From Escherichia coli (GTDB lineage: Bacteria; Pseudomonadota; Gammaproteobacteria; Enterobacterales; Enterobacteriaceae), in NCBI RefSeq assembly GCF_024502345.1, contig NZ_JALDNN010000002.1: 64,000 nucleotides of DNA; one strand, given 5' to 3'. Shown here in pieces: positions 4,151-58,331 of this stretch. A model generated the notes under the pieces. That model saw only the letters and a list, made by a program, of their open reading frames with translations. It did no database searches and was not told the origin of the DNA. Positions within the stretch are counted from its first letter, which is position 1; every line of letters begins with the position of its first letter. A program made the translations under genes and the position numbers.

Positions 4151-4864
4151 GGCAGACGAACTACAGTTGCCGCGGGGCAGGTATTCAACGCTCCAGGTGG
4201 AGCCACTGGCATCCGGGGTACGCCGTCTGGAAGACTGTTATCGCGGGCTGCAGGAAAAAATCGTGCAGCTCGAAGGCAAAAAACGGTCGCAAAAACAGTT
4301 GATTGCTTCACATAAGAATCGTCCTTTTTATCATCTGTGGCACAGAAAAGGGGGCCAGCTCCCGGACGAGAAATGTGATGCCCTGCCCTGCCACTGCGGG
4401 CAGAAACACTGTCTCTGCCGCAGATCGGGGATTCAGACCTGGAGGTGGCGCAACGGGCAACCGGGGTCATCCGGCTGGCTACCCTGTGTGCTCAGTCGCA
4501 GAAAAGAATCCTGGAGCTGGAAAGGGATCTTGCCTCACAAAGTGAGGAGCTCGTTGACCTGCAGGCACATCCCTTTTTTAACCTGTGGGATAAATACCGC
4601 GACCTGATCCTGTTCTGGGGGGCGTGGTGACTTTTCTGGACTTTATCAGTGGATGTTGGGGGCATGAATGTTCCCGTTCCATAGCCACACACTGAAGAGG
4701 ACTGAAACCAGTGCCCGAAAATATCGTGTCTGTAATCACTGACGGGGTAGTTTTGTTTGCGACTTCGTCTGTTTTCTGGCTGGCCGTCGCTGGCTGGTTA
4801 GTCATCCTGACTCCGGTAATATTACGAAGAAAATTCTCGGCAAAGAAAAAAGTTAACAGAAATT

Positions 4865-5659
4865 ATGAATAACCTGGTTCCAGTTGGATCTCCGTCATCT
4901 CCCGGAACATTGCTTCCGGTGGCCATCGATTACCCTGCCGCCCTCGCCCTGCGCCAGATGGCGCTCGTGCAGGATGAACTGCCGAAATACCTGCTGGCGC
5001 CGGAAGTCAGCGCCCTGCTCCATTACGTGCCGGATCTTCACCGCAAGATGCTGCTGGTGACGCTGTGGAACACCGGCGCGCGCATTAATGAAGCGCTCGC
5101 GCTGACCCGGGGGGATTTTTCACTGACGCCGCCGTATCCGTTCGTGCAGCTGGCCACGCTCAAGCAGCGCGCCGAGAAAGCGGCCAGGACGGCAGGTCGT
5201 GCTCCCGCAGGCAGTCAGGTCCATCGTCTTGTTCCGCTTTCCGATCACCACTACGTCAGCCAGCTACAGATGATGGTGGCCACCCTGAAAATTCCGCTGG
5301 AAAGACGAAACAAGCACACCGGCAGAATTGAGAAGGCGCGTATCTGGGAGATCACAGACCGTACCGTCCGCACCTGGCTTAGCGAAGCGGTGGAGGCCGC
5401 AGCGGCCGACGGGGTGACGTTCTCAGTACCGGTGACCCCCCATACGTTCCGTCACTCCTACGCGATGCACATGCTGTACGCCGGTATTCCGCTGAAAGTG
5501 CTGCAGAGCCTGATGGGCCATAAATCGATTAGCTCGACGGAGGTCTATACGAAGGTGTTTGCGCTCGATGTCGCAGCGCGCCATCGTGTGCAGTTCGCCA
5601 TGCCGGAAGCTGAAGCTGTTGCGTTGATAAAAAAGTTAACCCCAGACCAATCTACATAG
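4865..5659 (+). CDS. tyrosine site-specific recombinase (plasmid resolvase, ResD-like)
   Basis: 264 aa; C-terminal catalytic region ...HTFRHSYAMHMLYAGIPLKVLQSLMGHKSISSTEVYTKV... typical of phage-integrase family; adjacent to partition genes. Confidence 0.8.
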   Translation: MNNLVPVGSPSSPGTLLPVAIDYPAALALRQMALVQDELPKYLLAPEVSALLHYVPDLHRKMLLVTLWNTGARINEALALTRGDFSLTPPYPFVQLATLKQRAEKAARTAGRAPAGSQVHRLVPLSDHHYVSQLQMMVATLKIPLERRNKHTGRIEKARIWEITDRTVRTWLSEAVEAAAADGVTFSVPVTPHTFRHSYAMHMLYAGIPLKVLQSLMGHKSISSTEVYTKVFALDVAARHRVQFAMPEAEAVALIKKLTPDQST

Positions 5660-5745
5660 GTCAACTATGGGTATACCCCAGGTTTCGACCTAAAGTAGTT
5701 CTTGTGTGGGAAACAGTCCAAGCTTAATGGGGGGCTTATCCTGCC

Positions 5746-5943
5746 TCACCTTCTACAGCTATCAATCACATTAATGATGTTCAGAAAGGCCCTCATTGCC
5801 CTAAAGAAATAAAATGCAGCCATGAAAATAAAGAATAATTGAGATACAACTCCTGCTAAATCATGGTTGCTACCAGCCACTGATAGCAACGTAAATAGTA
5901 ATGCAAGCGAAAAATATAAGGCAATTGTAGTATTTGAATTCAT
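5746..5943 (-). CDS. small hydrophobic protein, two predicted TM segments
   Basis: 65-aa ORF with strongly hydrophobic composition; no recognisable family. Confidence 0.3.
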   Translation of the reverse strand: MNSNTTIALYFSLALLFTLLSVAGSNHDLAGVVSQLFFIFMAAFYFFRAMRAFLNIINVIDSCRR

Positions 5944-6033
5944 GTATATCCCCTTATGTATAGGACTGAGGCCACCCCCAAATTTTCACTATCGCGCAGT
6001 TATTGCCTCGATATAAAAGGTGTTACCACCCTG

Positions 6034-6082: not shown

Positions 6083-6385
6083 TTATCGTTGTTTTGCTTC
6101 TGCGATTAATCTGGATATCTCTGTTTTTGATAAACTTTTTAGTGCCTCTACCGCTGCCCTGACTACGTCAGAACGATTCACTCTGCTTTTACCTGAAATC
6201 ATTTCACCCGTTATAAGATCATCAATGTCTTTTAAGTTTTCTTCAAAAAAGGAAATGCTCACTGGTTTTGCTTTACTTACAGCCAATGGTCTCTCTGAAG
6301 TCACTTTGGTATTATCAATACCAGCAGTACCACCGTTAATAAACGCTGCCTCATCACGAGATGGAGTATTTGCTCTATTTCTCAC
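6083..6385 (-). CDS. small partition protein (ParG/ParB-like partner of ParA)
   Basis: 100-aa ORF with 4-bp overlap to the upstream ParA gene; typical type Ib organisation. Confidence 0.6.
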   Translation of the reverse strand: MRNRANTPSRDEAAFINGGTAGIDNTKVTSERPLAVSKAKPVSISFFEENLKDIDDLITGEMISGKSRVNRSDVVRAAVEALKSLSKTEISRLIAEAKQR

Positions 6386-7011
6386 AGAATAACCTCTTTA
6401 ACTAACGATTCGATTTCTTGTTGTGCTTTGTCATTTTGCGTTTCAAATATTGTCATTGATTCTGCCCAAGCATCTCGATGCGCTTTTCGATCACAAACTC
6501 GGGAGTTAGCCAGCCGCATTTCAGGATAATCCTTGAGTACGTCAGCTGCCTGATTTGCTTCATTGACAAACATGTTCGTGGGCGTCATGTTTAAAACGAG
6601 ATATCCCCGGACGTCCTCATTAAAATCTTTTGCTGCTGTAAAAACAGAGCATGTATGAGGCACTACATCCAGGTCCATCTGAGAAGGCCGCAACGGAGAA
6701 ATGAATACGTCAGCGGCCATCAACCCACTACGCATTTCTGCACTGTCGCGGCCAGCACAGTCTGCGATGACAAAGTCATAAGATTTCTCGTGTTCCTTTA
6801 GCATGGCTTTGATGTTGCCTGTTGCGCCAGTAACCGGAATATGGGGAAGATCTTCAGGACGATTGTTGTACCAGGTCAATACAGATTTCTGGTCATCTGC
6901 GTCGACAATGATCACTCGATTGCCCAGTGACATCAGATACGCAGCTATAGATACCGCCAGTGTACTTTTACCAACCCCACCCTTTTGACTACCCAATACT
7001 ATTATCATCAC
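6382..7011 (-). CDS. parA: ParA-family partition ATPase (small, type Ib)
   Basis: 209 aa; deviant Walker A GSQKGGVGKST at N-terminus. Confidence 0.85.
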   Translation of the reverse strand: MMIIVLGSQKGGVGKSTLAVSIAAYLMSLGNRVIIVDADDQKSVLTWYNNRPEDLPHIPVTGATGNIKAMLKEHEKSYDFVIADCAGRDSAEMRSGLMAADVFISPLRPSQMDLDVVPHTCSVFTAAKDFNEDVRGYLVLNMTPTNMFVNEANQAADVLKDYPEMRLANSRVCDRKAHRDAWAESMTIFETQNDKAQQEIESLVKEVIL

Positions 7012-7584: not shown

Positions 7585-8478
7585 TTATACAGCTGTTCCT
7601 GGTTTCAGATTTGCTGAGCGACGGTGGATCAGAATGAAAGTCTCTTTACCTTTTTTGGTGATGCTGTGGTCAAGGTACCCAATATCCTGCAACTGCTTGA
7701 GGGCCAGTTTAATGATACGGTTCTGTTCCTTTACCGGAGAGAGCAATGAGAGCCTGTCTCGTATTCGTTTGAAAGATATGGGGACTGGGTTCGTAGGCAG
7801 ACTTTCGATGAAAGTATACAGGGCCTGAGCTGCTTCCTTTCGGGTTAAAGCATTTATCGGCTTATGTCGTAGCAGAACAGTGTAATCAGTTTGGTAGAGT
7901 TCCCATAGTCGCTGATCAGCTTCAAGTTCCACCTGGTCGTTTGCAAAATCCAGTTCACCTGTCTTAAGCAAACCTGTTACGGAAACTTTTTGAAGGCCCT
8001 CTGAGTCGCTACGGGTAAAGGTAATGGTCTTGCCACGTATCCTGGTCAAAGCTTCTGAAATACTTTTTCTAAGACGGGAATCGAATCTCTTAGACTCAAA
8101 GCGGCACATTCCAGCAAACTCATGAAAAGTAAGCTTAATGCTGTTGGTTTTTAAACCGTACTTACTGAAAGCTTCTATGATACCGACCCATACCTTGAAG
8201 TCGATGGCCATACTCAACCGTTCACCGGTTATACGAATATCGTCGTAACCCTCCCGCCTTGAGAATTCCAAATCCTTGAGAACAGAGGTCGCATCGATTG
8301 ATGTTCTAGTGCCCTTTGCAGGCCTGCTTGAAGGAACAAAAACATTTAATCTCATCAGGGCTACAGGCTGAACTGTGGCCTTACTTGTGACGGTGAGTTT
8401 ATTGTTAACACTTTCACAATCTGGACCTATAACCTCGCCGATATAAACATTCTCATTCATATAGTTATATCCATTCAT
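7585..8478 (-). CDS. repA: replication initiator RepA (Rep_3 family, RepFIB-like)
   Basis: 297 aa; Rep_3-type sequence; iterons on both sides. Confidence 0.85.
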   Translation of the reverse strand: MNGYNYMNENVYIGEVIGPDCESVNNKLTVTSKATVQPVALMRLNVFVPSSRPAKGTRTSIDATSVLKDLEFSRREGYDDIRITGERLSMAIDFKVWVGIIEAFSKYGLKTNSIKLTFHEFAGMCRFESKRFDSRLRKSISEALTRIRGKTITFTRSDSEGLQKVSVTGLLKTGELDFANDQVELEADQRLWELYQTDYTVLLRHKPINALTRKEAAQALYTFIESLPTNPVPISFKRIRDRLSLLSPVKEQNRIIKLALKQLQDIGYLDHSITKKGKETFILIHRRSANLKPGTAV

Positions 8479-8871: not shown

Positions 8872-10143
8872 TTAACCGATCCTCGCAACGGGGATATCTC
8901 TCCAGCGAGTGGTGTACGCAGGGGAGAGCATATCGCGTTTCATTTGCCAGGATGGCACAATTCCTCTACCGGCAAACCATACTTTACCCAGCCCTGAGTT
9001 GTTGATCCCGTCCAGAACCCTCATCAGCTCAGCACTGTGAGGGCGTGGCGGGCGTTCGTCGAACAGCTGCAGCTGCGAAACGCCGGAGCCGGTGAAGTCA
9101 TTCAGCATAACTCCGGCTTTGGCATACCTGTGCCCATCCCTCCAGATACGCTCCAGAGCCGTTGTGGCGGCTGCAATGATGTCCCTGGTGTCCTGAGTGG
9201 GTGTAAGAAGTTTTTCCGTAGCCACGTTGCCGTAGTAAGGCTCTTTAACGGCGAACGGAGACGTTTTGATGAAAACGGAAATATGCCGGCAATACTGGTG
9301 CTCTTTACGCAGCTTTTCAGAGGCCCGCTCTGCGTGCTGACAGATAGCCTGACGGAGTGACTCGTACTCCGTGATCTTCACGCCAAAACTGCGGCTGCAG
9401 ACAATTTGCTGTTTCGTCGGAGGGGCTTCCTCAAGCGAAAGGCAGCTTTCCCCGTTCAGTTCCCGTACCGTTCGCTCAAGGACGACAGAAAAATTTTTGC
9501 GGATGAAGGCCGGGTTCGTCAGAGCCAGATCGAGCGCGGTCTTAATGCCCAGTACATTCAGCTTGCGTGCAATACGGTTACCCACCCCCCAGATTTCTTC
9601 AACCGGCTGCAGTGAAAGCAGTTTCCGCGTTCTCTGCGGATTTCCCCTGGTCAGAGCAAGTACGCCACGAAACTGTTTCCACTCTTTTGAGGCCCACTGG
9701 GCTGATTTTGCGAGGGTCTTCGTTGGCCCGGCGCCCACGCCAATGGTAAGGCGGGTACAGTCATACACGTGCTGACGCAGCTGCCGGCCGAAGTCCTCAA
9801 GCTCCATACAGTGCTCCACGCCGGTCAGGTCGAGGAACATCTCATCAATTGAATACTGTTCCACCCTGGGGGCCAGTTCCTCCAGGCTGTTCATCACGCG
9901 CGCCGACATCGAAGCATAAAGTTCATAGTTACTTGAAAACGCATATATTTTTTCCGGGTATCTTTCGTTTTTTATCTGAAACCACGGAGTTCCCATTTTG
10001 ATCCAGCGCTTCGCCTCGGCACTGCGAGCGATTACGTTCCCGTCGTTGTTGCTCAGGACGACTATCGGCTTTCCTTTCAAATCCGGTCGGAAAACACGTT
10101 CACAGCTGGCATAGAAGCTGTTCACATCGGCCAGGGCAAACAT
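8872..10143 (-). CDS. umuC: error-prone DNA polymerase V subunit UmuC (Y-family polymerase)
   Basis: 423 aa; [22 protein letters not shown]... N-terminus and Y-family polymerase motifs. Confidence 0.95.
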
Positions 10144-10574
10144 CAGTACATCTCCCTCGGGCGGTGGATGATATGCGTGACGACGCCAAAGATATCCAGC
10201 TCATCGGGGTCAGGATAAGTCGGCGACCAGGAGGCATTCATGGGCTGCAGCGTCAGTCGAGGCGTCAGCAGAAGCCGTTTAACCGTAAACTCCCCCTGTA
10301 CGCTGGCGACAACGATATCGCCGTGCCGCGGCTTTTCAGCACTGTCCACAACCAGCAGATCGCCATTGTACAGACTACCGTCCGCCATGCTGTCTCCGCT
10401 GGCACGCAGGTAGTACGTCGCGCTCGGATGCCGTATGCAGTAATCATGGAGATCCAGATCGGACTCGACATAGTCAGCGGCAGGGCTGGGAAAACCGCAG
10501 CTGGCCAGATCGGCAAACAATGGATGAGCCTGTGGCGGGTGTTCTTTCCCGGTGCTGAAAAGCTGTAGCTTCAT
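10143..10574 (-). CDS. umuD: UmuD (LexA-like self-cleaving peptidase S24)
   Basis: 143 aa from ATG at 10574 ([13 protein letters not shown]...), preceded by GGAGGA RBS; stop overlaps umuC start; the 270-aa track ORF is an upstream over-extension. Confidence 0.9.
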
Positions 10575-10597
10575 CTTTCCTCCTGATACTCTAATTT

Positions 10598-10617
10598 TAC
10601 TGGTTATGCATACAGTG
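10598..10617. promoter_or_regulatory. LexA (SOS) box TACTGGTTATGCATACAGTG
   Basis: CTG-N10-CAG core with one mismatch to consensus, about 25 bp upstream of umuD start. Confidence 0.7.
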
Positions 10618-12562
10618 TGCGCCGGGAGACCGGTAGAGATCAAGGGGTGAAAGTCCCCGACCATTGAAGGACCAGCAATCCACAAGGTCCCCGAGTCATG
10701 CGTTGCATACCGCGAGGTATGGGGCGAAGCGTTGACAGGGGTGTTGACAGGCCAGCCATTGAGCCACGAAATGTATATTAAATTACCGGGTGCCGACGTT
10801 GTACTGTTAACGGAAGGCAACATCATAGGGTGCGATACTGCGAGTGCCACATGGACCCGGCGGGGTCTGAGACCCTGGCATGTCAATACGATCTCTACGC
10901 GGGAACCGGGAGATCTCCCCTCTGACCATCTGCCAGTGTCGGAGATGGCCCGCACCGGGAAGACGAGGAGTCATAGCCGGTGATGTACGGAGAGGAGAAG
11001 TCGGACTCGCTCATAGTAGCGGCGAAGCAGGCGAACAACCCGAAAGGAGCGGAGTCAGTGGAGCGAAGGAGCGGGGCCAAGGGGAACGTGGAACAGCCAC
11101 ACATGCGCCGGACACAGAGCCGGGAAAGCATGTCACAGAGGCTGTCACGCGTGCGGGAAGCTGCGAAGCAGCGGAAGAAAGAACGGTTTACAGCATTGTT
11201 CCACCTGCTGACAGTCGAAGCACTGGAAGCCGCATTCCTCTCCCTGAGCAGGAAAGCGGCCGCCGGAGTGGATGGCATCAGGTGGATGGACTACGCCGGA
11301 AACATGAAGAACAACATAACAGATCTGCACCGGAGGCTACATCAGGGCAGCTACAGGGCGCAGCCCGGCAGGCGTCACTACATCCCAAAAGCGGATGGAA
11401 AACAACGCCCGCTCGGCATCGCCTCGCTGGAGGACAAGATCGTCCAGTATGCGCTGGTGAAAATCCTGAACGCAGTCTATGAAAACGACTTTATGGGGTT
11501 CTCATACGGGTTCAGACCCGGGCGAAGCCAGCACGATGCACTGGACGCACTGGCCACAGGGCTGGTACGCACTAACGTAAACTGGGTACTGGATGCCGAC
11601 ATCAGTCAGTTCTTCGACAGGGTGAGCCACGAATGGCTGATCAGGTTCACAGAGCATCGGATCGGCGACCGGAGCGTAATCAGGCTCATACGTAAGTGGC
11701 TCACAGCCGGGACGTTGGAGGAGGGTCAATGGCGAGCAACGGAGGAAGGCACCCCACAGGGTGCGGTCATCTCACCGCTGCTGGCAAACATATACCTCCA
11801 CTACGTCTTCGATCTGTGGGCGCATCAGTGGCGACGTCGCTATGCCACAGGCAATGTGGTAATGGTCAGATACGCCGATGACATCGTCATCGGGTTCGAC
11901 AAACGATACGATGCCCGGCGCTTCCGTATAGCCATGCAGCGCAGACTGAGGGAGTTCGGACTCACGGTTCACCCGGAGAAAACCCGTCTGATGGAGTTCG
12001 GCCGCTTCGCTGCCGAAAACCGTGCCATCAGGGGAAAAGGCAAACCAGAAACGTTCAACTTCCTCGGGTTCACGCACATCAGCGGGAAAGATCGCAACGG
12101 CAGGTTCATGCTGATACGAAAGACCCGCCGGGATCGGATGACGGCAACTCTGAAAGCCATCAAAGACGGTCTGCGAAGGCGCTGGCATTACTCAATCCCC
12201 GAACAGGGAAAATGGCTCAGGAGAGTGGTTCAGGGATACCTGAACTATCACTCGGTACCGGGCAACTTCCCCACCATGCAGAAGTTCAGGACACACGTAA
12301 CAAACCTCTGGCGCCGGGCGCTCAGGCGCAGGAGCCAGAAGGATGATACGACCTGGACGAAAGCAAACAAACTGGCAGCCGCATGGCTACCAAGGGTTCG
12401 GGTTCTTCATCCATGGCCTGTGGAGCGGTTCACCGCCAGACACCCGAGGCAGGAGCCCGGTGCGTAAATCGCGCACGCCGGGATCTGTGCGGGGGGTATC
12501 CGGTAACGGGTATCCCTACCGCGACATATTTAACAGCGTGACGATAATCCAGATCGCCTGCC
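10617..12562 (+). mobile_element. group II intron (bacterial, RT/maturase-encoding); 3' boundary approximate
   Basis: GTGCG at 10617-10621, about 360 bp structured leader, RT/maturase ORF, GNRA-loop hairpin near the 3' end; IS1 abuts at about 12563. Confidence 0.7.
10983..12467 (+). CDS. group II intron reverse transcriptase/maturase
   Basis: RT motifs incl. YADD (...MVRYADDIVIGF...), maturase domain, no endonuclease domain. Confidence 0.9.
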   Translation: MYGEEKSDSLIVAAKQANNPKGAESVERRSGAKGNVEQPHMRRTQSRESMSQRLSRVREAAKQRKKERFTALFHLLTVEALEAAFLSLSRKAAAGVDGIRWMDYAGNMKNNITDLHRRLHQGSYRAQPGRRHYIPKADGKQRPLGIASLEDKIVQYALVKILNAVYENDFMGFSYGFRPGRSQHDALDALATGLVRTNVNWVLDADISQFFDRVSHEWLIRFTEHRIGDRSVIRLIRKWLTAGTLEEGQWRATEEGTPQGAVISPLLANIYLHYVFDLWAHQWRRRYATGNVVMVRYADDIVIGFDKRYDARRFRIAMQRRLREFGLTVHPEKTRLMEFGRFAAENRAIRGKGKPETFNFLGFTHISGKDRNGRFMLIRKTRRDRMTATLKAIKDGLRRRWHYSIPEQGKWLRRVVQGYLNYHSVPGNFPTMQKFRTHVTNLWRRALRRRSQKDDTTWTKANKLAAAWLPRVRVLHPWPVERFTARHPRQEPGA

Positions 12563-12618
12563 GGATAATGGTGCCAACTTACTGATTTAGTGTACGATGG
12601 TGTCTTTGAGGTGCTCCA

Positions 12619-12894
12619 GTGGCTTCCATCTCCATCAGTTGTCCCTCCTGCTCAGCTACTGAAGGCGTGGTGCGTAACGGTAAAAGTACTGCCGGACATC
12701 AGCGCTATCTCTGCTCTCACTGCCGTAAAACATGGCAGCTACAGTTCACTTACACCGCCTCTCAGCCCGGTACGCACCAGAAAATCATTGATATGGCCAT
12801 GAATGGCGTTGGATGCCGGGCAACCGCCCGCATTATGGGCGTTGGCCTCAACACGATTTTACGTCACTTAAAAAACTCAGGCCGCAGTCGGTAA
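12619..12894 (+). CDS. insA: IS1 InsA
   Basis: [91 protein letters not shown]. Confidence 0.95.
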
Positions 12895-13316
12895 CCTCAC
12901 GCATACAACCGGGCAGTGACGTCATTGTCTGCGCGGAAATGGACGAACAGTGGGGCTACGTCGGGGCTAAATCACGTCAGCGCTGGTTATTTTACGCCTA
13001 TGGCAGGATGTGCAGGACGGTGGTGGCACGCGTCTTTGGTGAGCGTACTCTGGCCACGCTGGAGCGTCTTCCGGGCCTGCTGTCGGCCTTTGAGGTCGTG
13101 GTATGGATGACGGATGGCTGGCCGCTTTATGAATCCCGCCTGAAGGGAGAACTGCACGTTATCAGCAAGCGATATACGCAGCGAATTGAGCGGCATAACC
13201 AGAATCTGAGGCAGCATCTGGCAAGGCTGGGCAGGAAGTCACTGTCGTTCTCAAAATCGGTGGCGCTGCATGACAAAGTCATCGGGCATTATCTGAACAT
13301 AAAACACTATCAGTAA
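12813..13316 (+). CDS. insB: IS1 InsB (expressed as InsAB' by -1 frameshift)
   Basis: 167-aa ORF overlapping insA 3' end in -1 frame. Confidence 0.9.
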
Positions 13317-13331
13317 GTTGGAGTCATTACC

Positions 13332-13633
13332 AACCAGTTCACCACCTACTCGCTCCGCGATTGTGGCAGTCTTCGAAATCCCCGGACGATCCGCCTTTAT
13401 GAAAGTCTTGCTCAATTCAAATCTTCAGGCTTATGGGTTACTACTCATGCTTGGTTAAATGACCGTTTCGTCTTACCGGAATCCCAGCAGAAGAACTTGG
13501 CAGAGTTGAAACGATCTTTCCTTGATCCTGCACTCAAGCAGATAAATGAGAAAACACCTTTACTTGCTAAGTATAGTATTGATGATTCAGGAAAATTTCT
13601 GTTCTCAATAATTGATAAGCAAAATCCCGTCTG
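13332..13633 (+). pseudogene. 3' fragment of a replication-initiator-like gene, 5'-truncated by IS1
   Basis: Frame open from the IS1 end; ...TTYSLRDCGSLRNPRTIRLYESLAQF... resembles the Rep_3 motif; ends at stop 13631-13633. Confidence 0.4.
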
Positions 13634-13683
13634 ACATAAATCAGCACACATGAGCCTGTCATTTGACAAATTTTTGTCATGAA

Positions 13684-14183
13684 GATGGGCGGATTTCCAC
13701 ACAGCACCGGCGCCCGGTAAGGTGGGCGGATTCCCACACGGCACCGGCGCCCGGTAAGGTGGGCGGATTCCCACACGGCACCGGCGCCCGGTAAGGTGGG
13801 CGGATTCCCACACGGCACCGGCGCCCGGCAAGATGGGCGGATTTCCACACAGCACCGGCGCCCGGTAAGGTGGGCGGATTCCCACACGGCACCGGCGCCC
13901 GGTAAGGTGGGCGGATTCCCACACGGCACCGGCGCCCCGCAAGATGGGCGGATTTCCACACAGCACCGGCGCCCGGTAAGGTGGGCGGATTTCCACACAG
14001 CACCGGCGCGCGGCAAGGTGGGCGGATTTCCACACGGCACCGGCGCCCGGCAAGGTGGGCGGATTTCCACACAGCACCGGCGCCCGGCAAGGTGGGCGGA
14101 TTCCCACACGGCACCGGCGCGCGGCAAGGTGGGCGGATTCCCACACGGCACCGGCGCCCGGCAAGGCGGGCCGATTCCCATAT
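13684..14183. repeat. tandem array of about 13.5 copies of a 37-bp GC-rich repeat
   Basis: Contiguous units g[ga]tgggcggatt[tc]ccacac[ag]gcaccggcgc[cg]cgg[tc]aag with two alternating variants. Confidence 0.95.
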
Positions 14184-14406
14184 CGACATGTATGTAGCTT
14201 GTGTTATCTGTGGATTGTGCAGCTCAGCGGGTCGCTGGTCGTATGGCGGAGTGTCCCCCGTAACCGGCCGCGTGCGGCCGCTAACGCGCAGTACGGCGCC
14301 GCGTCCCGCAGGCGGGCCGCCGTTCCCGCGCGCAGCACTGCGCACCCCCGTGGGGGACGTGCGGCAGCTGCGTGGCGGTGACCGGCACGAACCGCATGTT
14401 AGGTCG

Positions 14407-14709
14407 AGTGACGGCTTCACAAATAGCTTCAGCGTCTGCAGCATCATGCTTATTGGTTTTAACATAGGGTTTGACGAACTGAGGGGCCATCAGTTTGACA
14501 TTATGGCCCATCGATATCAGTTTATTGGCCCAGAAATGAGCAGATGCACAGGCCTCCATGCCGATCAAACAGGGTGGGATGTTGGCAAAAAAGGAGGCCA
14601 TTTGTGCCCGTCTGAGTTGTTTGTTGAACAACCGTTTTCCGTGCTCGTCAACCCCATGGATCTGGAAAACGTTTTTTGCCAAATCGATTCCAATAGTTTT
14701 AACGTTCAT
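14407..14709 (-). pseudogene. IS110-family transposase N-terminal fragment
   Basis: MNVKTIGIDLAKNVFQIHGVDEHGK...; sequence then degenerates into GC-rich non-homologous frame. Confidence 0.7.
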
Positions 14710-14914
14710 GATAGCAGCGCTCCGTTCAATGAGTGACGATTTATCGTCCCACTGTGGCACAAGAGATGGGAGGCGACCATTCCATTAACAAAGCCGGTAT
14801 TTAGCCGTTGATGCGTCAATACCGTAGGTAAATTTAGCAACTAGAAACCATACCATTATTGGCGGCAAAGTAATTGCAAATAAAAATGCTAAGCCTCTTT
14901 CTCTATCGTCCATT

Positions 14915-15331
14915 TCAGCGCTCCTTTTTTGGTTCCCAGACTTTATAGCCGTTACGTTCAACCTCTGCTTTTGCCGCTTTGGTTTTACCCGGTTCTGCTA
15001 TCGAACGTAGGAGGATCAGCGTTTCAATAGCGAGTGATTCATGCAACATCATCTGTCCTGCCGGTGGGAATGTTACGCCAGATAGCGTTTCGGTTATTGC
15101 CTTCAGCTCATCGCGCAGTGAGCCAAAATCCGCATCTGAAGCACGGTCAAAAAGGTAATCCAGTTTGCGATTTACGTCGCTCAGCTGGTTGGTAACTATT
15201 TTCAACCCGGACTCCAGATCACCTGGGCCAGCTTCAAGGCAGCGCCGCAGATACTCTGACCGATTACCACCTGAAACCAGGTCTATATAGGCCAAAAGTT
15301 CATCTGATACTTTTGCGGTTATTGTTGGCAT
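14915..15331 (-). CDS. hypothetical protein with N-terminal ribbon-helix-helix-like segment
   Basis: 138 aa; MPTITAKVSDELLAYIDLV...RSEYLRRCLE pattern suggests RHH DNA binding; function unknown. Confidence 0.5.
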   Translation of the reverse strand: MPTITAKVSDELLAYIDLVSGGNRSEYLRRCLEAGPGDLESGLKIVTNQLSDVNRKLDYLFDRASDADFGSLRDELKAITETLSGVTFPPAGQMMLHESLAIETLILLRSIAEPGKTKAAKAEVERNGYKVWEPKKER

Positions 15332-15654
15332 TCAGTCCTCACTTTGTGCATTTTTTAAACGAAAAAAGGGTGTCTAATACGGTGAAATCATAGTATTACC
15401 AAAGTAATAAATAAAAAATTCTTTAAATCAGTAAGTTAGATTAGATTTGTAATACCTGGGTAATACCGCAGTATGGCTAAATTTGGTTTTTTTCTTTTAA
15501 ATCAGTGAGATAGCGTGATTTATCACGCTGCGTTAGGTGTATAGCAGGTTAAGGGATAAAAAATCATCTTTTTTTGGTAGGGCGATCTCCGTAGGTTAAG
15601 GGTCATTTGGCTAAAAAGCGTCCTATTCTTTGATGGTCATGCTTGCATGACCAT

Positions 15655-15830
15655 CTGAGCAACCAAAAACTACAGATAAACTACAGATAAACTACAAAAA
15701 ACGTTTTGCCTTAGTGTTGGGAGACTACAAATAGACTACAATAAAACTACAAATAAACTACAAATAAACTACAAAAAACGTGACAGACTACAAATAGACT
15801 ACAATAAAACTACAGATAAACTACAAAACT
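15655..15830. repeat. iteron-like array of about 14 direct repeats (ACTACA[AG]ATA[AG]A, 11-bp periodicity)
   Basis: aactacagataaactacagataaactacaaaaaacg...gactacaaatagactacaataaaactacaaataaactacaaataaa... Confidence 0.9.
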
Positions 15831-15886
15831 CGATTGACCCCTTCTTACGAGTGTTGTAGAGTCATTTTCATACAACGGAGGGGGTT

Positions 15887-16273
15887 ATGAATAAACCAGC
15901 AGATCTGAAACCCCGCAACTTATCGGCTGCTGTCAGATTGCGCCTAAATGAAATCGAGAACTGGCTGGACAGAGGGCTAACGCGGCATGAAATTGCTGAA
16001 ATCCTCGACAGCGAATACAGCTTTTCGGTAACAGCCAAAGGGCTTGAGATGGCACTGTATAGAACGCGGCAAAACCGAAAAAATGTATTGCACAATACAC
16101 ATGATAAGAGTAGCGCGAAGGGTGCAGCGGAAAGTGTATTGCACAATACACAACCGTCTGAGCCTGAAGCGCAGGAAAGTAAAAAAGCAGAGAGTCCCGG
16201 CATTATTGATAAAGAATTCTTCAAGAAAATCGGTGAGAATTTCGACCCTAAGAAGTTCAACAAAAAATTCTGA
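15887..16273 (+). CDS. hypothetical DNA-binding protein (candidate iteron-binding adaptor)
   Basis: 128 aa; GGGGG RBS; helix-turn-helix-like ...GLTRHEIAEIL...; directly downstream of the iteron array. Confidence 0.5.
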   Translation: MNKPADLKPRNLSAAVRLRLNEIENWLDRGLTRHEIAEILDSEYSFSVTAKGLEMALYRTRQNRKNVLHNTHDKSSAKGAAESVLHNTQPSEPEAQESKKAESPGIIDKEFFKKIGENFDPKKFNKKF

Positions 16274-16281
16274 GGTGATTT

Positions 16282-16468
16282 ATGAAAGTAGCGGTAATTA
16301 ATTACAGTGGCAGTGTTCGTAAAACCTTAATTTCATCTTACCTGTTAGCCCCGCGCCTGACTGGTGCAAAGTTCTATGCGGTAGAGACTATCAACCAGTC
16401 TGCTTCCGATCTGGGTATTGAAAATGTGACCAGTTTTAAAGGTGACGACTTCTCACGTTTGATTGAGG
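16282..16468 (+). pseudogene. N-terminal fragment of a possible actin-like (ParM-type) ATPase, 3'-truncated by IS1
   Basis: MKVAVINYSGSVRKTLISS... resembles the ParM N-terminus (MLVFIDDGSTNIKLQW); frame runs into IS1 at 16469. Confidence 0.35.
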
Positions 16469-17007
16469 GGTAATGACTCCAACTTACTGGTAGTGTTTTA
16501 TGTTCAGATAATGTCCAATGACTTTGTCATGCAGTTCTCCCTTCAGGCGTGATTCATAAAGCGGCCAGTCATCCGTCATCCATACCACGACCTCAAAGGC
16601 CGACAGCAGGCCCGGAAGACGCTCCAGCGTGGCCAACGTGCGTTCACCGAATACGTGCGCCACAACCGTCCTCCGTATCCTGTCATACGCGTAAAACAAC
16701 CAGCGCTGGCGTGATTTAGCGCCGACGTAACCCCACTGTTCGTCTATTTCCGCGCAAACAATGACGTCACTGCCCGGTTGTATGCGTGAGTTTACCGACT
16801 GCGGCCTGAGAGGCGGTGTAAGTGAACTGTAGCTGCCATGTTTTACGGCAGTGAGAGCAGAGATAGCGCTGATGTCCGGCAGTACTTTTACCGTTACGCA
16901 CCACGCCTTCAGTAGCTGAGCAGGAGGGACAAGTGATGGAGATGGAAGCCACTGGAGCACCTCAAAACCACCATCATACACTAAATCAGCAAGTTGGTAG
17001 CATTACC
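16469..17007 (-). mobile_element. IS1 copy b, internally deleted (539 bp)
   Basis: Both IS1 ends present; insA and insB carry internal deletions relative to copy a. Confidence 0.85.
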
Positions 17008-17279
17008 CAGAACTGGACAGAATAGGCTGTATGTCTAACTTCTGGCCACAGATATAATCGAGCCAGCAGTGCTCGCCGCAGCCGAGCGACAGGGCGAAGC
17101 CCCGAGTGAGCGAGGAAGCACCATGGAACAGTACTCATAAATTCTGCATACGCTCAATGCCTGCAAAATCACCTCCCATAGGGGTTATCCACTTATCCAC
17201 GGGGATATTTTTATAAGATCTTTTTAAATAGTTGTTAGATTTTTATTTTTAGAATGCCCACAGGCCTTTATCCATGCGG

Positions 17280-17400
17280 GTTCCAGAGAGGGATCTGTGA
17301 CAAAACGCCCTTTCAGTGTGACAAATCACCCTCAAATAGCCGCCATTTCTGTGACAAGTTGCCCTTAACCCTGTGACAAATTGCCCTCAGGAAGCGTTGC
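17280..17400. promoter_or_regulatory. F-type (RepFIA-like) iterons, orphaned: four TGTGACAA[AT]T.GCCCT repeats
   Basis: ctgtgacaaaacgccc / gtgtgacaaatcaccc / ctgtgacaagttgccc / ctgtgacaaattgccctcag at about 22-bp spacing; no rep gene adjacent. Confidence 0.65.
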
Positions 17401-17529
17401 TTTTCACAAAGTTATCCATCCCTGTTGACTCTGTTTTATGAAGTGTGACAATCTTAAAGTCTGTCACACTTCGCATGGACCTGTCATGGCGGAAATAGCG
17501 GTTATAAACCATAAAAAACGTAAAAATAG

Positions 17530-18446
17530 TGAATCGCCACGGATAATCTAGACACTTCCGAGCCGTTGATAATACTGGTTTTCATATTCTGTCGGTGACA
17601 TCTGTTCGCTAGAACCATGCCGACGCTTACTGTTATAAAACATTTCGATGTAATCAAAAATATCACTGCGGGCTTCTTCCCGCGTTCCGTAGATCTTTTT
17701 CTTTATCCGTTCACGTTTCAACAACTGGAAAAAACTTTCTGCAACCGCATTATCATGGCAGTTACCGCGACGGCTCATGCTACCCTCCAGGCCGTGTGAT
17801 TTCAGGAACGACTGCCACTCATGGCTTGTGTACTGACTGCCCTGATCCGAATGAACCAGCACCTGTTTTTCGGGATTACGCCGCCATACAGCCATCAGCA
17901 GTGCGTTCAGGACAATGTCCTTTGTCATCCGGGATTGCATGGACCAGCCGATAATTTTGCGTGAGAACAGATCAACAACAACGGCAAGATACAGCCAGCC
18001 TTCGTGGGTCCTGATGTAGGTTATGTCCGTTACCCAACGCTCATCAGGAGCATCCGGATTGAACTGTCGCTGGAGCCTGTTGGGTGACACGATACTGGCC
18101 TCGCCTTTACGTGCCCGCGGGCTTCGGTATCCGACCTGAGCCTTTATTCCGACACGTTTCATCAGTCTCCAGACTCTGTTTACTCCGCACTGTTGCCCGC
18201 TGTCACGCAGATCCAGATGGATTTTGCGATAACCATAGACGCATCCCGATTCCAGCCAGAACTGTTTAATCTGTCCTGTCAGTCTCAGGTCTGCCTGATG
18301 GCGTTGTGAATGCGGCTGCTGAAGCCAGGCGTAAAAACCACTGGGATGAACATCCAGCACCCGACAGAGCAGGCGAACAGGCCAGCAACAGGAGTTGTCA
18401 CGGATAAAGGCGTACCTCAGTCGGACAGCTTTGCGAAGTACGCCGC
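17530..18446 (-). mobile_element. IS3-family element fragment X (right IR plus orfB), truncated by IS30
   Basis: Terminal tgaatcgccacgg... IR at 17530; orfB with DDE motifs; orfA missing. Confidence 0.8.
17548..18360 (-). CDS. IS3-family transposase OrfB (DDE integrase domain), partial
   Basis: 270 aa; ...WVTDITYIRTHEGWLYLAVVVDLFSRKIIGW...HSDQGSQYTS... Confidence 0.85.
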   Translation of the reverse strand: MLDVHPSGFYAWLQQPHSQRHQADLRLTGQIKQFWLESGCVYGYRKIHLDLRDSGQQCGVNRVWRLMKRVGIKAQVGYRSPRARKGEASIVSPNRLQRQFNPDAPDERWVTDITYIRTHEGWLYLAVVVDLFSRKIIGWSMQSRMTKDIVLNALLMAVWRRNPEKQVLVHSDQGSQYTSHEWQSFLKSHGLEGSMSRRGNCHDNAVAESFFQLLKRERIKKKIYGTREEARSDIFDYIEMFYNSKRRHGSSEQMSPTEYENQYYQRLGSV

Positions 18447-20583
<2,137 letters not shown>

Positions 20584-56184: not shown

Positions 56185-57156
56185 TTAGACTCCTGGTTTC
56201 TCAAGCTCCTTAAGAATGGCTTCTATTTTCTCTATACACTCCGCAGGAATGCGGGACCGATCTAGGTTAAGCACTATTTTATCGCCCTTATACAATGCTG
56301 TTGCCCCTGGAGCAAACTGATGACGTGAACTCAGATTAACTCTTGATGCGCGAGATTGTTTCAGTACGGATGTTAAAAGACTAATGACCTCTTCAGCTTC
56401 AAAGATTAGTCCCGCTTTCTTCTGATCGTGGAGAGTCTCAGCCTGCTGCTTCAGTAATTCTTCTTTATCTGCAAAAGCCTTCTGAAGGGCTTCACCTGAC
56501 CGGGCAGACAGTTCTCCAGGATGTGCAAACAGGGCAACAACTGATTTAGGCAGTTTGGCCGTATTGATACAGCGGGTAATGATCTTACGAGAGATGTTTT
56601 CCGCATCGGCAAGCGCAGAAATATTTCCGGCAAACTCATTCTGCAGCCGGCTTGTATAACGCAGGCCACGTTCATAAGCACTCGTCGGCCGATAATCGTT
56701 ACCCAGCCGGGACAATGCAGCCATCTGCTCGTCGTCCAGTTCACCAACCAGAATGCGATAATCACTTTCCGTCAGGATTGCGGCTTTACGGCGACGGCTG
56801 CCGTCTGCAATTTCTATGACATCAGAAACCCAGCGGCCGAAAGCTGGAGTCTGCTGACCGGTCAGTAAAAATGAAGGTATGAGATCATCCAGAGCATCTT
56901 CGGTAAGTAGTTCCTGATCACGCTCATTTCCTGACCATACGCGTGAGGCGCTCTCAACAGACTCTCCCCGGAGCACCTCAAGGGTAAATTTTACTTCCCG
57001 TCCACATACCGGAAGAGAGATAGCATTACCGCGGGCCATAGCACCCACGCGCGCAATTAATGAATCCACCATCGGCGCGGCCGGCGCCGGTGATGAAGTA
57101 TCTTCAGTCGATTGAGTATGTGTGGTATGCCTTGGAATGACAGGGGCACGCTTCAT
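56185..57156 (-). CDS. sopB: partition protein SopB (ParB family)
   Basis: 323 aa matching F-plasmid SopB from memory. Confidence 0.95.
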
Positions 57157-58331
57157 TATCTAATCTCCCAGCGTGGTTTAATCAGACGATCAAAAATCTC
57201 ATTACAAACAGGTTCCCAGATTGAAAGTGCGTTTCGCCATGCGCCGGTCGAAGAACGTTGATCAATCGCCTGTTCGAAAACGGTTCTCATGCGGATCTGG
57301 CCTTTACCAACTTCATCGGTTTCACGTACCACATTTTTAAGAACCATGCTTCCCCATGCATCGCGAATTTGTTCTTCCATCCACGGTGACTGCGAACCAT
57401 TGTTATTACTGTATTTGGTAAGCAGAATACGGACATCCGGCTCAAAGCCTTTAAGATCCACATTCCTGAGCAGATCACGAAGCATATCGAAAAACTGCAG
57501 TGCAGAAGTGTAATCGAACAGCTCTGCCGGGGTGGGAACAATCAGCACATCAGCAGCGCATACGACATTGATCGTGCCAATACCGAGGTTCGGTGCGCTG
57601 TCGATAACAATCACATCATAGTCATGAGCGACCGTTTCAATAGCAAGGCGGAGCATCAGATGCGGGTCGGTGGGCAGTTTTCCTTCATCAAATTTGCCCA
57701 TCAGTTCAGTTTCAATGCGATGCAGTGCCAGGCAGGACGGAATGATATCAAGGCCAGGCCAGCAGGTTGGTTTTATCGCATAACTGGCATCATCCTTTTC
57801 ACCAAGATAAAAGGGCAGGAGAGTATCTTCCGCGTGTATATGAAGATCGGGCACCCATCCGTGATACATCGAGGCTGTGCCCTGAGGATCATTACCCTCG
57901 ACAAGCAGAACGCGTAATCCTTTCAGGGCCAGGTCCTGAGCCAGGTGAACAGAAACGGAGGTTTTGTAAACACCACCTTTGTGAGCAGCAACACCAATCA
58001 CCGGCGGAAACGCATCTTCAGCACGGCGCAGTCGTGTACCAAATACATCCCGCATGTGATTGATTTGCTCGATGGTATAACCAACGCGTTGCTCAACTCT
58101 TCCACGGGTTTCCATATCAGGGTGAGGCAGCCGGCCAGCTTTCTCGGCATCCCTGATAGCCTGAGATGACACGCCAACTAAATCAGCTGCTTCACCAATC
58201 CTCCAGCGCCGGGTTATTTTCCGGGCTTCCGGACTGTCATCATTAAACTGCGCAATGGCGATTGCTTTCGTCATTTCATGACCAGCACTTATGCACTGGT
58301 TGAGTGTATCCATGAGTCCCATACTGAACAT
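57156..58331 (-). CDS. sopA: partition ATPase SopA (ParA type Ia)
   Basis: 391 aa; Walker A ...[10 protein letters not shown]...; near-identical to F SopA as recalled. Confidence 0.95.

Follow-up and report, generated by a model that had tools for sequence, protein, structure and literature searches.

A probable captured IncN fragment with traK, oriT and StbA-type repeats in an Escherichia coli plasmid mosaic

StbA systems of IncW and IncN plasmids

The StbA/stbS system of the IncW plasmid R388 is described as an NTPase-independent segregation system (Guynet 2011, PMC3098194; Quebre 2022, 10.1101/2022.04.29.490116, PDB 7pc1). Its stbS site consists of two sets of five repeats, each of 9 bp plus 2 bp; StbA binds these repeats in vitro, and conjugation does not depend on them (PMC3098194; 10.1101/2022.04.29.490116). 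StbA and these repeats (stbDRs) are enough for stabilization, StbB being dispensable there, and StbB is needed only for conjugation in the presence of StbA (Guynet 2011, PMC3098194). For the IncN plasmid R46, the effect of stb on stability was reported to be recA-dependent, according to a citation in PMC3098194, and the R388 model may, therefore, not carry over fully to IncN.

A related region was found in the window, which here means the whole 64-kb stretch of Escherichia coli DNA that was analyzed. Positions 14796-16468 matched traJ-traK-oriT-stbA-stbB of p3-BD-13 (NZ_CP082981), a conjugative IncN plasmid, without a break at 93.7% DNA identity (blastn), and the IncN plasmid pN3 aligned as well with the flanks of the repeat/StbA cassette. 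Very probably, this segment was captured from a conjugative plasmid of the IncN family (R46/pKM101-type, MOBF); it contains traK, oriT, an stbS array, stbA, and the initial quarter of stbB. The gene identities, the synteny, the conservation of nic, and the joint variation of the repeats and the DNA-binding domain of StbA were shown directly in this analysis. Among the stbABC-oriT regions of IncN plasmids (R46, pKM101, pCU1, and pN3), that of p3-BD-13 was the closest; nic and the hairpin are identical, and the ACTACA repeat core and the three-block layout are both those of p3-BD-13. R388 shares the gene order of trwA/traK, oriT, repeats, and stbA-stbB.

Compared to an intact IncN plasmid, the window holds only a fragment, which lacks traI, stbC, the leading region, and the T4SS and in which traJ and stbB are cut. 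When the entire window was compared to p3-BD-13 by blastn, with mobF and the T4CP gene included, the only matches were 14796-16468 and a CUP repeat. No cognate relaxase and coupling protein are thus encoded in cis, as traI is absent and traJ is cut after about 39 codons. Since both proteins are missing from the window, the oriT is an orphan and could work only with a helper. The left end of the segment is as follows:

14796..14914, minus strand: traJ', the first ~39 codons of the gene for the IncN type IV coupling protein (the p3-BD-13 blastn match starts at 14796, equal to its position 5898, inside the T4CP gene at 4486-6015)

An IS110-family fragment ends at 14796 and truncates traJ there, and the flank at 14600-14796 matched IS110-family elements with 100% identity. 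This junction was not found as such in PLSDB. We also found no plasmid that matches the entire window, which is made of known modules in a new combination. An Rfam scan of 13300-17600 at E<=1 gave nothing but a chance miRNA match, and none of the three proteins (TraK, StbA, and StbB) had a match in PHROGs. The region itself is ordinary and already known: hundreds of RefSeq plasmids have stbA and traK annotated, and the mechanism of R388 StbA/stbS has been described.

TraK and the origin of transfer

The following features precede the repeat array:

14915..15331, minus strand: traK, intact, encoding a 138-aa relaxosome accessory protein, the counterpart of R388 TrwA (annotated as "traK protein" in matching plasmids)
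15393..15466, no strand assigned: imperfect inverted repeats GTATTACCAAAGTAATA / TAATACCTGGGTAATAC beside the traK start, from a repeat search; candidate TraK or promoter sites
15512..15529, plus strand: oriT recognition hairpin AGCGTGAT-tt-ATCACGCT on the transferred strand (ssDNA fold z = -3.3; conserved in pN3 and p3-BD-13)
15530..15548, plus strand: nic region GCGTTAGGTGT/ATAGCAGG, invariant in the window, p3-BD-13, and pN3
15632..15655, no strand assigned: perfect 11-bp inverted repeat GATGGTCATGC-tt-GCATGACCATC immediately 5' of the repeat array, from a repeat search

A divergent ORF at 14915-15331 had been noted in an earlier reading made from the sequence only (hereafter, the sequence-only reading). 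The ORF is present on the minus strand and its 138-aa product is TraK, which had gone unrecognized, as had the IncN oriT beside it, which makes up the left half of the intergenic region. The protein showed 93-95% identity to database TraK clusters, and its C-terminus was 49% identical to TrwA over 37 aa (E=4e-10) in a collinear alignment. TrwA is a ribbon-helix-helix (RHH) protein. For TraK itself, an N-terminal beta-alpha-alpha RHH fold is a candidate assignment: weak NCBIfam matches covered residues 4-33 only (E=3e-4), there was no match in Pfam-A, and an AF2 model built from 6 sequences had a mean pLDDT of 51 and was unusable. In the inverted-repeat region at the traK start, GTATTACCAAAGTAATAAA and TAATACCT were invariant in the IncN alignment.

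The hairpin is followed by the conserved nic on the strand leading into the stb genes, which is the arrangement of a MOBF oriT of the IncN/IncW type. R388 has the hairpin gcgcaccgaaaggtgcg at the equivalent position, and its nic, tattgtct/atagccc, parallels the IncN nic region. In the co-crystal of pKM101 TraI, the 11 nt 5' of nic were used, read as xCGTT... (10.1101/2022.06.02.494495), and the hairpin and nic of the window are consistent with the description of the pKM101 oriT. We infer that the nick would fall between 15540 and 15541, and stbS and stbA would therefore be the first to enter the recipient. The core TCATGCTTGCATGA of the inverted repeat at 15632-15655 is kept in IncN, and R388 has the inverted repeat cccaatgcgctatgcgcattggg at the equivalent place.

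Together, oriT and TraK could permit mobilization, given an IncN helper that provides a relaxase (TraI), a coupling protein (TraJ), a T4SS, and StbB in trans. In the absence of StbB, StbA on its sites would be expected to inhibit transfer. Relatives without a relaxase were typed as mobilizable by MOB-suite.

The repeat array, StbA and the StbB fragment

The stb part of the segment consists of the following:

15669..15830, plus strand: stbS-like array of 12 direct repeats (stbDR), ACTACA(A/G)ATAA, with an 11-bp period, in blocks of 3+5+4
15834..15862, plus strand: sigma-70-like candidate stbA promoter TTGACC-17-TAGAGT (consensus scan, 9/12 matches; a consensus match only)
15887..16273, plus strand: stbA, intact, encoding a 128-aa protein with an N-terminal HTH (~residues 7-66), a VLHNT(H/Q) linker repeat, and a small C-terminal domain
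16282..16468, plus strand: stbB', the first 62 codons of the gene for the 238-aa StbB ATPase, a pseudogene (NF041292 positions 1-61 of 233)

About 14 direct repeats had been counted in the sequence-only reading; the array with its 11-bp period is real and spans 15669-15830, but it holds 12 copies. The copies lie at exact 11-bp spacing within three blocks, 15669-15701 (3 copies), 15724-15778 (5), and 15787-15830 (4). Blocks 1 and 2 are 33 bp apart, which keeps them in helical phase, and block 3 is offset by 19 bp. The motif ACTACARATAR, with at most one mismatch, had 11 matches in the 64-kb window, 9 of them within the 160-bp array, compared to 2.27 +/- 1.63 in shuffled sequence, where 11 matches were reached in 0 of 100 shuffles. 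Copy number varied from 10 to 13 among relatives, a drift that counts against the R388-type model here, and the p3-BD-13 array has 13 repeats. The array starts 129 bp 3' of nic, and the -35-like hexamer begins 4 bp past the last repeat.

R388 likewise has direct repeats with an 11-bp period, placed in sets just 5' of stbA, with nic about 130 bp away. The repeat unit differs, being TTGCATCAT in R388, read on the opposite strand, and the window has 12 copies in three blocks versus 10 in two. R388 also carries extra repeat pairs at other promoters, whereas such pairs were absent from the rest of the window and from the IncN loci that were compared. A cognate array with an 11-bp period in at least two sets at the stbA promoter, as in stbS, is thus present.

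The 128-aa HTH-like protein that had been proposed 3' of the repeats was borne out: its N-terminal domain is homologous to residues 1-75 of R388 StbA. Identity between the two StbA proteins is only about 24-28% and is limited to the N-terminal domain. A profile search of the PDB reached 7pc1 from the window protein; a single-sequence phmmer search of the PDB gave only a spurious match of the low-complexity linker to bS20. In Pfam-A, the only match was Clr5 (E=0.045); the Pfam-A set used for all three proteins did not include the newer family PF28167, which appears in precomputed annotations. The window StbA was 97% identical to the p3-BD-13 protein. As in p3-BD-13, pN3, and R388, stbA is the first gene of stbA-stbB(-stbC), beside oriT and oriented away from the relaxosome operon; the window copy of the stb operon stops after stbB codon 62.

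The comparison of pN3 and p3-BD-13 bears on what binds the repeats. TraK (WP_001749975.1) is identical in these plasmids, as is nic, but their repeats differ, (G/T)TACA(T/A)CA versus ACTACA, and so do StbA residues 1-66. pN3 carries a different allele of a 430-bp cassette (15651-16083) made up of the repeats, the promoter, and StbA codons 1-66. Because the repeats change jointly with the DNA-binding domain of StbA against a constant TraK and nic, the array is most likely the centromere-like site of StbA (stbS) and not a set of replication iterons. This joint replacement across IncN lineages is a comparative clue to the protein that binds the repeats and suggests specificity alleles. No report of an experiment on the binding of IncN StbA to ACTACA repeats was found in the literature searched and, thus, we count this binding as inferred.

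The 63-aa ORF that follows (16282-16473, plus strand) had been read, as a weak assignment, as a truncated ParM-type ATPase. Its N-terminus, MKVAVINYSGSVRKT, is instead the P-loop start of StbB and matched NF041292. The proposed search for intact homologues was run and returned StbB, which is not actin-like; this is the outcome that the sequence-only reading had named as refuting it, and the ParM assignment was rejected. The intact homologue has 238 aa with the P-loop GSVGKT at residues 10-15, scored 280 bits against the NF041292 cut-off of 200, and was 37% identical to R388 StbB (E=3e-52). Its sole PDB sequence match was the ParA family protein 3cwq (E=0.007-0.018), and its only Pfam-A match was CbiA (E=0.2); no actin-like match to StbB was found in NCBIfam, Pfam, or the PDB. 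By these comparisons, the ORF is the start of StbB, a Walker-type ATPase distantly like ParA and not like actin. The ORF holds part of a family member and, as judged from its sequence, is not itself a functional one: it scored 78 bits against the same cut-off of 200, and its P-loop reads GSVRKT (G13R), compared to GSVGKT in IncN and GNVGKS in R388. G13R is common to other truncated copies of stbB and absent from intact genes, and stbB' is otherwise identical to intact StbB.

Three other identities of this locus were weighed. A type II locus, with the repeats as parC, the 128-aa protein as a ParR-like adaptor, and the truncated ORF as an actin-like ParM, would have a similar layout of repeat sets with a period of about 11 bp, a gene for a small DNA-binding protein, and an NTPase gene, and Quebre et al. 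liken stbS to parC of pB171 and pSK41 (10.1101/2022.04.29.490116). The centromere of ParMRC of R1 also consists of short direct repeats that surround the operon promoter, and the protein that binds it is small and autoregulatory. The window locus differs from ParMRC in having a P-loop NTPase, the reversed gene order, with the gene for the DNA-binding protein before the ATPase gene rather than parM-parR, and a fusion to a conjugative oriT. StbA is also an HTH protein, whereas ParR is a ribbon-helix-helix protein. An actin-like ATPase was ruled out by the intact homologues of the 63-aa ORF, which are P-loop StbB proteins and not an actin fold of ~320 aa, and this reading is exceedingly improbable. 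It is also very unlikely that the repeats are oriT proper, as relaxosome sites for TraK or TraI rather than StbA. They do lie only 129 bp 3' of nic, in the traK-stbA interval classically termed oriT in IncN, and thirteen 11-bp direct repeats are reportedly given as oriT features in early papers on pCU1 and R46. However, the repeats of pN3 and p3-BD-13 differ along with StbA residues 1-66 where TraK and nic are identical, and TraK sites were rejected on this ground. In addition, StbA binds the R388 repeats that occupy the equivalent place, and these are unnecessary for conjugation (PMC3098194; 10.1101/2022.04.29.490116).

Tandem repeats in an A+T-rich intergenic region of a multi-replicon plasmid could further suggest the iterons of a vegetative origin, an alternative that had been raised with the original proposal. 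We rejected it, and it has next to no likelihood, since there is no adjoining rep gene and separate iteron sets are present in the window. The IncN iterons (PMC6052338) form 13.5 copies of a 37-bp repeat at 13682-14180, beside the 3' end of repA, and the RepFIA iterons (TGTGACAA...GCCCT) lie at 17297-17390. The 11-bp array of intact IncN plasmids sits in the traK-stbA interval, some 9 kb away from repA.

Mosaic setting and possible function of the retained parts

Homology to intact IncN stops at 16468, where the following feature begins:

16469..17008, minus strand: IS1 remnant of 540 bp with two internal deletions, which joins stbB' to RepFIA DNA

The view that an IS1 copy cuts the ORF was right in that IS1-derived sequence ends it from 16469, giving the 63-aa ORF its final Gly codon and stop. 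The element is not a complete insertion; it is a degraded remnant that matched full IS1 copies in three blastn pieces (16469-16537, 16530-16810, and 16802-17008), and no target-site duplication was found at 16469-17008. On the evidence of its sequence, this junction to RepFIA DNA arose by recombination rather than by a simple insertion.

The nearby IncN repA and RepFIA repE are both truncated, with an IS3-family element cutting repE after about 15 codons. The IncR/IncFIA(HI1)-type mosaic pKPS77 has the same block of umuDC, group II intron, IS1, IncN repA', and 37-bp iterons, and plasmids L001 and L002 have the same block of traK-oriT-stbA-stbB', IS1 remnant, and RepFIA. The window differs from such mosaics in the interruption of repE by the IS3-family element and in the IS110-family fragment left of 14796. 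An R46-family oriT and RepE have already been noted in mosaics of this kind, e.g., pKPN945B, in a review of IncR plasmids (PMC12310702).

The proposal of a third segregation module held in part: a stability module made of an HTH protein, an 11-bp array, and an IS1-truncated ATPase gene is there, but it is not of the actin type. That it is now disabled was not established, as R388 StbA and the repeats stabilize without StbB (PMC3098194). Drawing on R388 genetics and biochemistry, StbA dimers would bind successive repeats cooperatively on one face of the helix. This binding would repress the adjacent stbA promoter, and the StbA-repeat complex would hold plasmid copies in position on the nucleoid. 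The segregation activity of StbA would require no plasmid-encoded NTPase. Because StbA-stbS activity in R388 needs none, the loss of StbB need not end segregation activity.

One explanation is that the fragment is a functionless fossil that rides between the IS elements of IncR/IncFIA mosaics, with StbA/stbS and oriT adding nothing to maintenance or spread. The truncation of stbB with its P-loop change, the truncation of traJ and of the adjacent repA and repE genes, the absence of traI, and the presence of SopAB and ParA systems all agree with this, and some database copies of stbA are frameshifted. Purifying selection after capture was not measurable: stbA differs between the window and p3-BD-13 by 1 synonymous and 4 nonsynonymous changes, too few to show it, and the dN/dS of traK, stbA, and stbB' gave too few post-capture substitutions for any signal of selection. 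An identical stbB::IS1 junction was found in 392 PLSDB records, in which these genes already carry annotation and for which common descent can account. Nevertheless, stbA, the promoter-like site, the full array, nic, and traK are all intact in the window, the DNA-binding domain of StbA (residues 1-70) was invariant in five of the six copies compared, and precisely the retained parts stabilize R388 (PMC3098194). Several truncation layouts in PLSDB, with left ends at 14796/14805, 15178, 15254, and 15329 and right ends at 16356 and 16468, also all retain oriT-repeats-stbA, in a sample subject to ascertainment bias. We regard the fossil as possible, if doubtful.

Another explanation, which is advanced tentatively and which we consider unlikely, is that the orphan oriT-stbS-stbA is a minimal NTPase-free cassette for stability and mobilization co-opted by IncR/IncFIA(HI1) mosaics. 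Its array-bound StbA would hold the plasmid on the nucleoid with no need of StbB, the intact nic and TraK would let it hitch-hike with IncN helpers, and the ACTACA and TACATCA cassettes would be exchangeable specificity alleles. If this is true, ACTACA- and TACATCA-type alleles (the repeats and StbA residues 1-66) would avoid interference between co-resident IncN-derived elements, and IncN helpers would furnish StbB, TraI, and TraJ to the cassette.

The practical gain is a correct annotation, namely an orphan IncN oriT on a plasmid that is potentially mobilizable by IncN helpers. The StbA/stbS stability element is possibly still active, by analogy with R388, and together with the oriT it would bear on the persistence and spread of IncR/IncF-type resistance plasmids.

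The other two segregation loci named in the sequence-only reading were found elsewhere in the window, as a ParA-type ATPase (6382-7011) and SopAB (56185-58331). These two canonical partition systems would make StbA/stbS redundant.

An IncN fragment with an origin of transfer

The segment at 14915-16480 matched 1,885 plasmid records (megablast against PLSDB), and the matching plasmids carry the annotations 'traK protein' and 'plasmid stabilization protein StbA'. Fragments of this kind are known and have been annotated before, and the mosaic around this one is common. Alignment to p3-BD-13 (NZ_CP082981), the closest intact IncN plasmid and of the self-transmissible IncN/MOBF/MPF_T type, was unbroken over window 14796-16468 (93.7%). 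The gene order of p3-BD-13 is mobF(traI)-T4CP(traJ)-traK, intergenic region, stbA-stbB-stbC. Apart from a CUP repeat, whole-window blastn against p3-BD-13 found no further IncN transfer DNA in the window. The ORFs of 138, 128 and 63 aa were taken from the six-frame list, where the divergent, 128-aa and truncated ORFs of the sequence-only reading are all present.

Features assigned to the IncN fragment
14796 (left end): traJ', first ~39 codons, from the p3-BD-13 alignment
14915-15331, minus strand: traK, 138 aa, intact
traK-stbA intergenic region: A+T-rich spacer with direct repeats, present whole
15669-15701: repeat block 1, 3 copies
15724-15778: repeat block 2, 5 copies
15787-15830: repeat block 3, 4 copies
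15887-16273: stbA, 128 aa, intact
16282-16473: stbB', ORF of 63 aa, first 62 codons native
16469-17008: IS1 remnant, 540 bp, two internal deletions, no target duplication

The 138-aa divergent protein is assigned as IncN TraK on the basis of 93-95% identity to database TraK clusters and a collinear alignment with R388 TrwA (C-terminus 49% identical, E=4e-10). Pfam has no model for TraK and the AF2 model was of too poor quality for use; a ribbon-helix-helix fold is plausible. A plus-strand hairpin lies at 15512-15529 (z=-3.3) and is directly followed by GCGTTAGGTGT/ATAGCAGG, where the slash marks the inferred nick, which would fall between 15540 and 15541. The window, p3-BD-13 and pN3, a classical IncN plasmid with another StbA allele, share this hairpin-nic stretch without change. 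It is paralleled by the R388 nic region, tattgtct/atagccc, and agrees with the xCGTT... read for the 11 nt 5' of nic in a study of pKM101 TraI (10.1101/2022.06.02.494495). With this polarity, a recipient would receive the repeats and stbA first, as has been described for stb operons (PMC3098194). The left half of the spacer and the divergent protein thus belong to a conjugative origin. An exact 10-bp direct repeat, AGGTTAAGGG, is found just 3' of nic at 15546-15555 and 15593-15602, 47 bp apart. It is kept in all IncN relatives aligned, and R388 has ttaagga/ttaagga-like motifs at the corresponding position.

StbA and the 11-bp repeats

The 128-aa protein scored 205 bits against the NCBIfam equivalog NF041290 (cut-off 100). 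Among 1.84 billion cluster representatives, searched exhaustively, 33 relatives were found. In an 18-sequence alignment, a conserved ~65-residue N-terminal domain is joined by a variable linker of LHN repeats to a small C-terminal domain. The only significant PDB sequence match of the profile was 7pc1, the R388 StbA DNA-binding domain (E=1.8e-9), and hhalign against R388 StbA gave 96.7% probability. The proposed small DNA-binding protein is therefore retained, and its profile matches identify it as StbA. In the linker (residues ~58-88, 16060-16150), the number of (S/N)VLHNT(H/Q) repeats varies: the window copy has two, and relatives have as many as three or four. Frameshifts fall within these repeats in several StbA proteins from databases, and the region looks slippage-prone.

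Twelve ACTACA-based 11-mers with exact 11-bp spacing lie in three blocks between the 138-aa and 128-aa ORFs. Blocks 1 and 2 are in helical phase, since they are 33 bp apart, and the offset of block 3 is 19 bp. A degenerate pattern matched 11 times in the 64-kb window, compared to 2.3 +/- 1.6 in shuffles, and nine of these matches fall within the 160-bp array. The 11-bp-periodic array noticed earlier is thus real, but with 12 copies instead of about 14. A promoter-like site, TTGACC-17-TAGAGT, starts 4 bp past the last repeat. The IncW plasmid R388 shares this arrangement: nic is followed by an inverted repeat and then, ~130 bp from nic on the 3' side, by the centromere-like array stbS, with two sets of five 9-bp repeats at 2-bp spacing around the stbA promoter (10.1101/2022.04.29.490116). 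These repeats bind StbA in vitro (PMC3098194; 10.1101/2022.04.29.490116). No other repeat pairs at 11-bp spacing were found in the rest of the window, 14.6 kb of p3-BD-13 or 50 kb of pN3, unlike R388, which has extra pairs at other promoters.

Homology to pN3 covers 14796-15650 and 16084-16466. The segment without it, 15651-16083, coincides exactly with the array plus the promoter and StbA codons 1-66. pN3 carries eleven (G/T)TACA(T/A)CA repeats, also with an 11-bp period, and its StbA (57% identical overall) has a different N-terminal domain and a conserved C-terminal part. Between pN3 and p3-BD-13, TraK is identical and the nic region is the same. In these alignments, then, the array and the DNA-binding domain of StbA differ as a pair, independently of TraK and the relaxase site, which supports StbA as the repeat ligand. 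The segment looks like a cassette-like allele replacement between IncN lineages, with unrelated DNA inside and both flanks 89-90% identical, and this suggests that the StbA/stbS specificity types, ACTACA and (G/T)TACA(T/A)CA, are exchangeable. The pN3 repeat is one base off the R388 consensus TTGCATCAT but, with respect to stbA, lies on the other strand.

Loss of StbB and possible remaining activity

The truncated ORF had been taken for a ParM-type actin-like ATPase. The 62 residues native to this ORF align with the StbB family model at positions 1-61 and are identical, save one, to the N-terminus of p3-BD-13 StbB (238 aa), an intact homologue of the kind that the earlier reading proposed to look for. 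Intact StbB scored 280 bits against the family model (cut-off 200), is 37% identical to R388 StbB (E=3e-52) and has a P-loop, GSVGKT, at residues 10-15. Pfam gave CbiA/ParA alone, sub-threshold, and the one PDB sequence relative was a weak ParA-family match (E=0.007-0.018). Nothing actin-like was found among family models, Pfam or PDB sequences. The StbB model match and the intact Walker-type homologue rule out ParM. The reading as a stability module, with repeats and a cut ATPase gene, therefore stands, but the ATPase family was wrong, and oriT and TraK had been missed. The window copy carries G13R in the P-loop, a change common to other truncated copies and absent from intact genes, which fits a pseudogene.

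Homology to stbB stops at 16468, and from 16469 on the IS1 inverted repeat supplies the Gly codon and stop of the 63-aa ORF. Thus stbB does end at IS1, as had been reported, but this IS1 is the 540-bp remnant, which links stbB' to RepFIA DNA without a target duplication. A 130-bp junction probe was covered by 392 PLSDB records from Klebsiella, Escherichia, Enterobacter, Citrobacter and other hosts, so the truncation is old and widely inherited.

By homology to R388, StbA would bind the array cooperatively along one face, repress its own promoter and hold plasmid copies on the nucleoid through the complex so formed. In R388, StbA and the repeats are needed for stabilisation and StbB is dispensable; StbB becomes necessary only for conjugation in the presence of StbA (PMC3098194). 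Loss of StbB alone therefore does not disable segregation, and the description of the module as now disabled is unproven. The oriT-stbS-stbA remnant is possibly still functional on the present plasmid, since everything sufficient by R388 genetics is intact in the window. Five of the six copies compared have an unchanged StbA DNA-binding domain. Several PLSDB truncation patterns (left ends 14796/14805, 15178, 15254 and 15329; right ends 16356 and 16468) all retain oriT-repeats-stbA, in a sample biased toward matches containing the query core. However, the substitutions are too few for detecting selection, frameshifts occur in some of the stbA copies in databases, the number of repeats varies between 10 and 13, and the plasmid also has SopAB and a ParA-type ATPase.

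The orphan oriT and TraK could serve an IncN helper; MOB-suite classes relatives without a relaxase as mobilizable. A review of IncR plasmids describes such mosaics as carrying RepE and an R46-family oriT, and counts stb among the stability genes of the IncR core (PMC12310702). The R46 stb stability effect is reported to be recA-dependent, as cited in PMC3098194. Our literature search found no experiment on an IncN ACTACA-type system.

The surrounding mosaic

Features around the IncN fragment
6382-7011: ParA-type ATPase
13332 onward: IncN repA, 3' 100 codons, 98.4% to pN3, cut by IS1 at 12813-13331
13682-14180: IncN oriV iterons, 13.5 tandem 37-bp repeats
14199-14378: CUP-like repeat, about 87% to three p3-BD-13 copies
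14379-14796: IS110-family fragment, transposase N-terminus starting at ~14709, minus strand
17009-17530: RepFIA(HI1)-type region, right of the IS1 remnant
17297-17390: four F-like RepFIA iterons, TGTGACAA...GCCCT
17487 onward: repE, ~15 codons, then an IS3-family element
17548-18360: IS3-family orfB
18509-19660: IS30-type transposase gene, after the IS3-family element
56185-58331, minus strand: SopA and SopB

The repA-iteron-CUP order equals the 'delta-repA - iteron - CUP' module (PMC6052338). The 37-bp iterons produce long spurious ORFs on both strands. The remainder of repE is nowhere in the window, and the IncN and RepFIA replicons here are thus both dead. Their iterons lie apart from the 11-bp repeats and are clearly distinct from them, so the array is neither of these replication iteron sets.

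The IS110-family fragment truncates traJ at 14796. Its 14600-14796 part has 100% identity to copies of IS110-family elements in many Klebsiella plasmids, but PLSDB contained no match to its exact junction with traJ'. The sop locus mentioned earlier is present as a complete type Ia partition pair, with SopA at 866 bits (NF010259) and its SopB/ParB partner at 620 bits (NF010252).

The IncR plasmid pKPS77 has the same block as window 8872-13331, with umuC/umuD-like genes, then a group II intron reverse transcriptase (10980-12467), then IS1. The 296-aa ORF at 7585-8478 had no NCBIfam match and is possibly IncR RepB. Together with the ParA-type ATPase, these features suggest that this part of the window is an IncR backbone.
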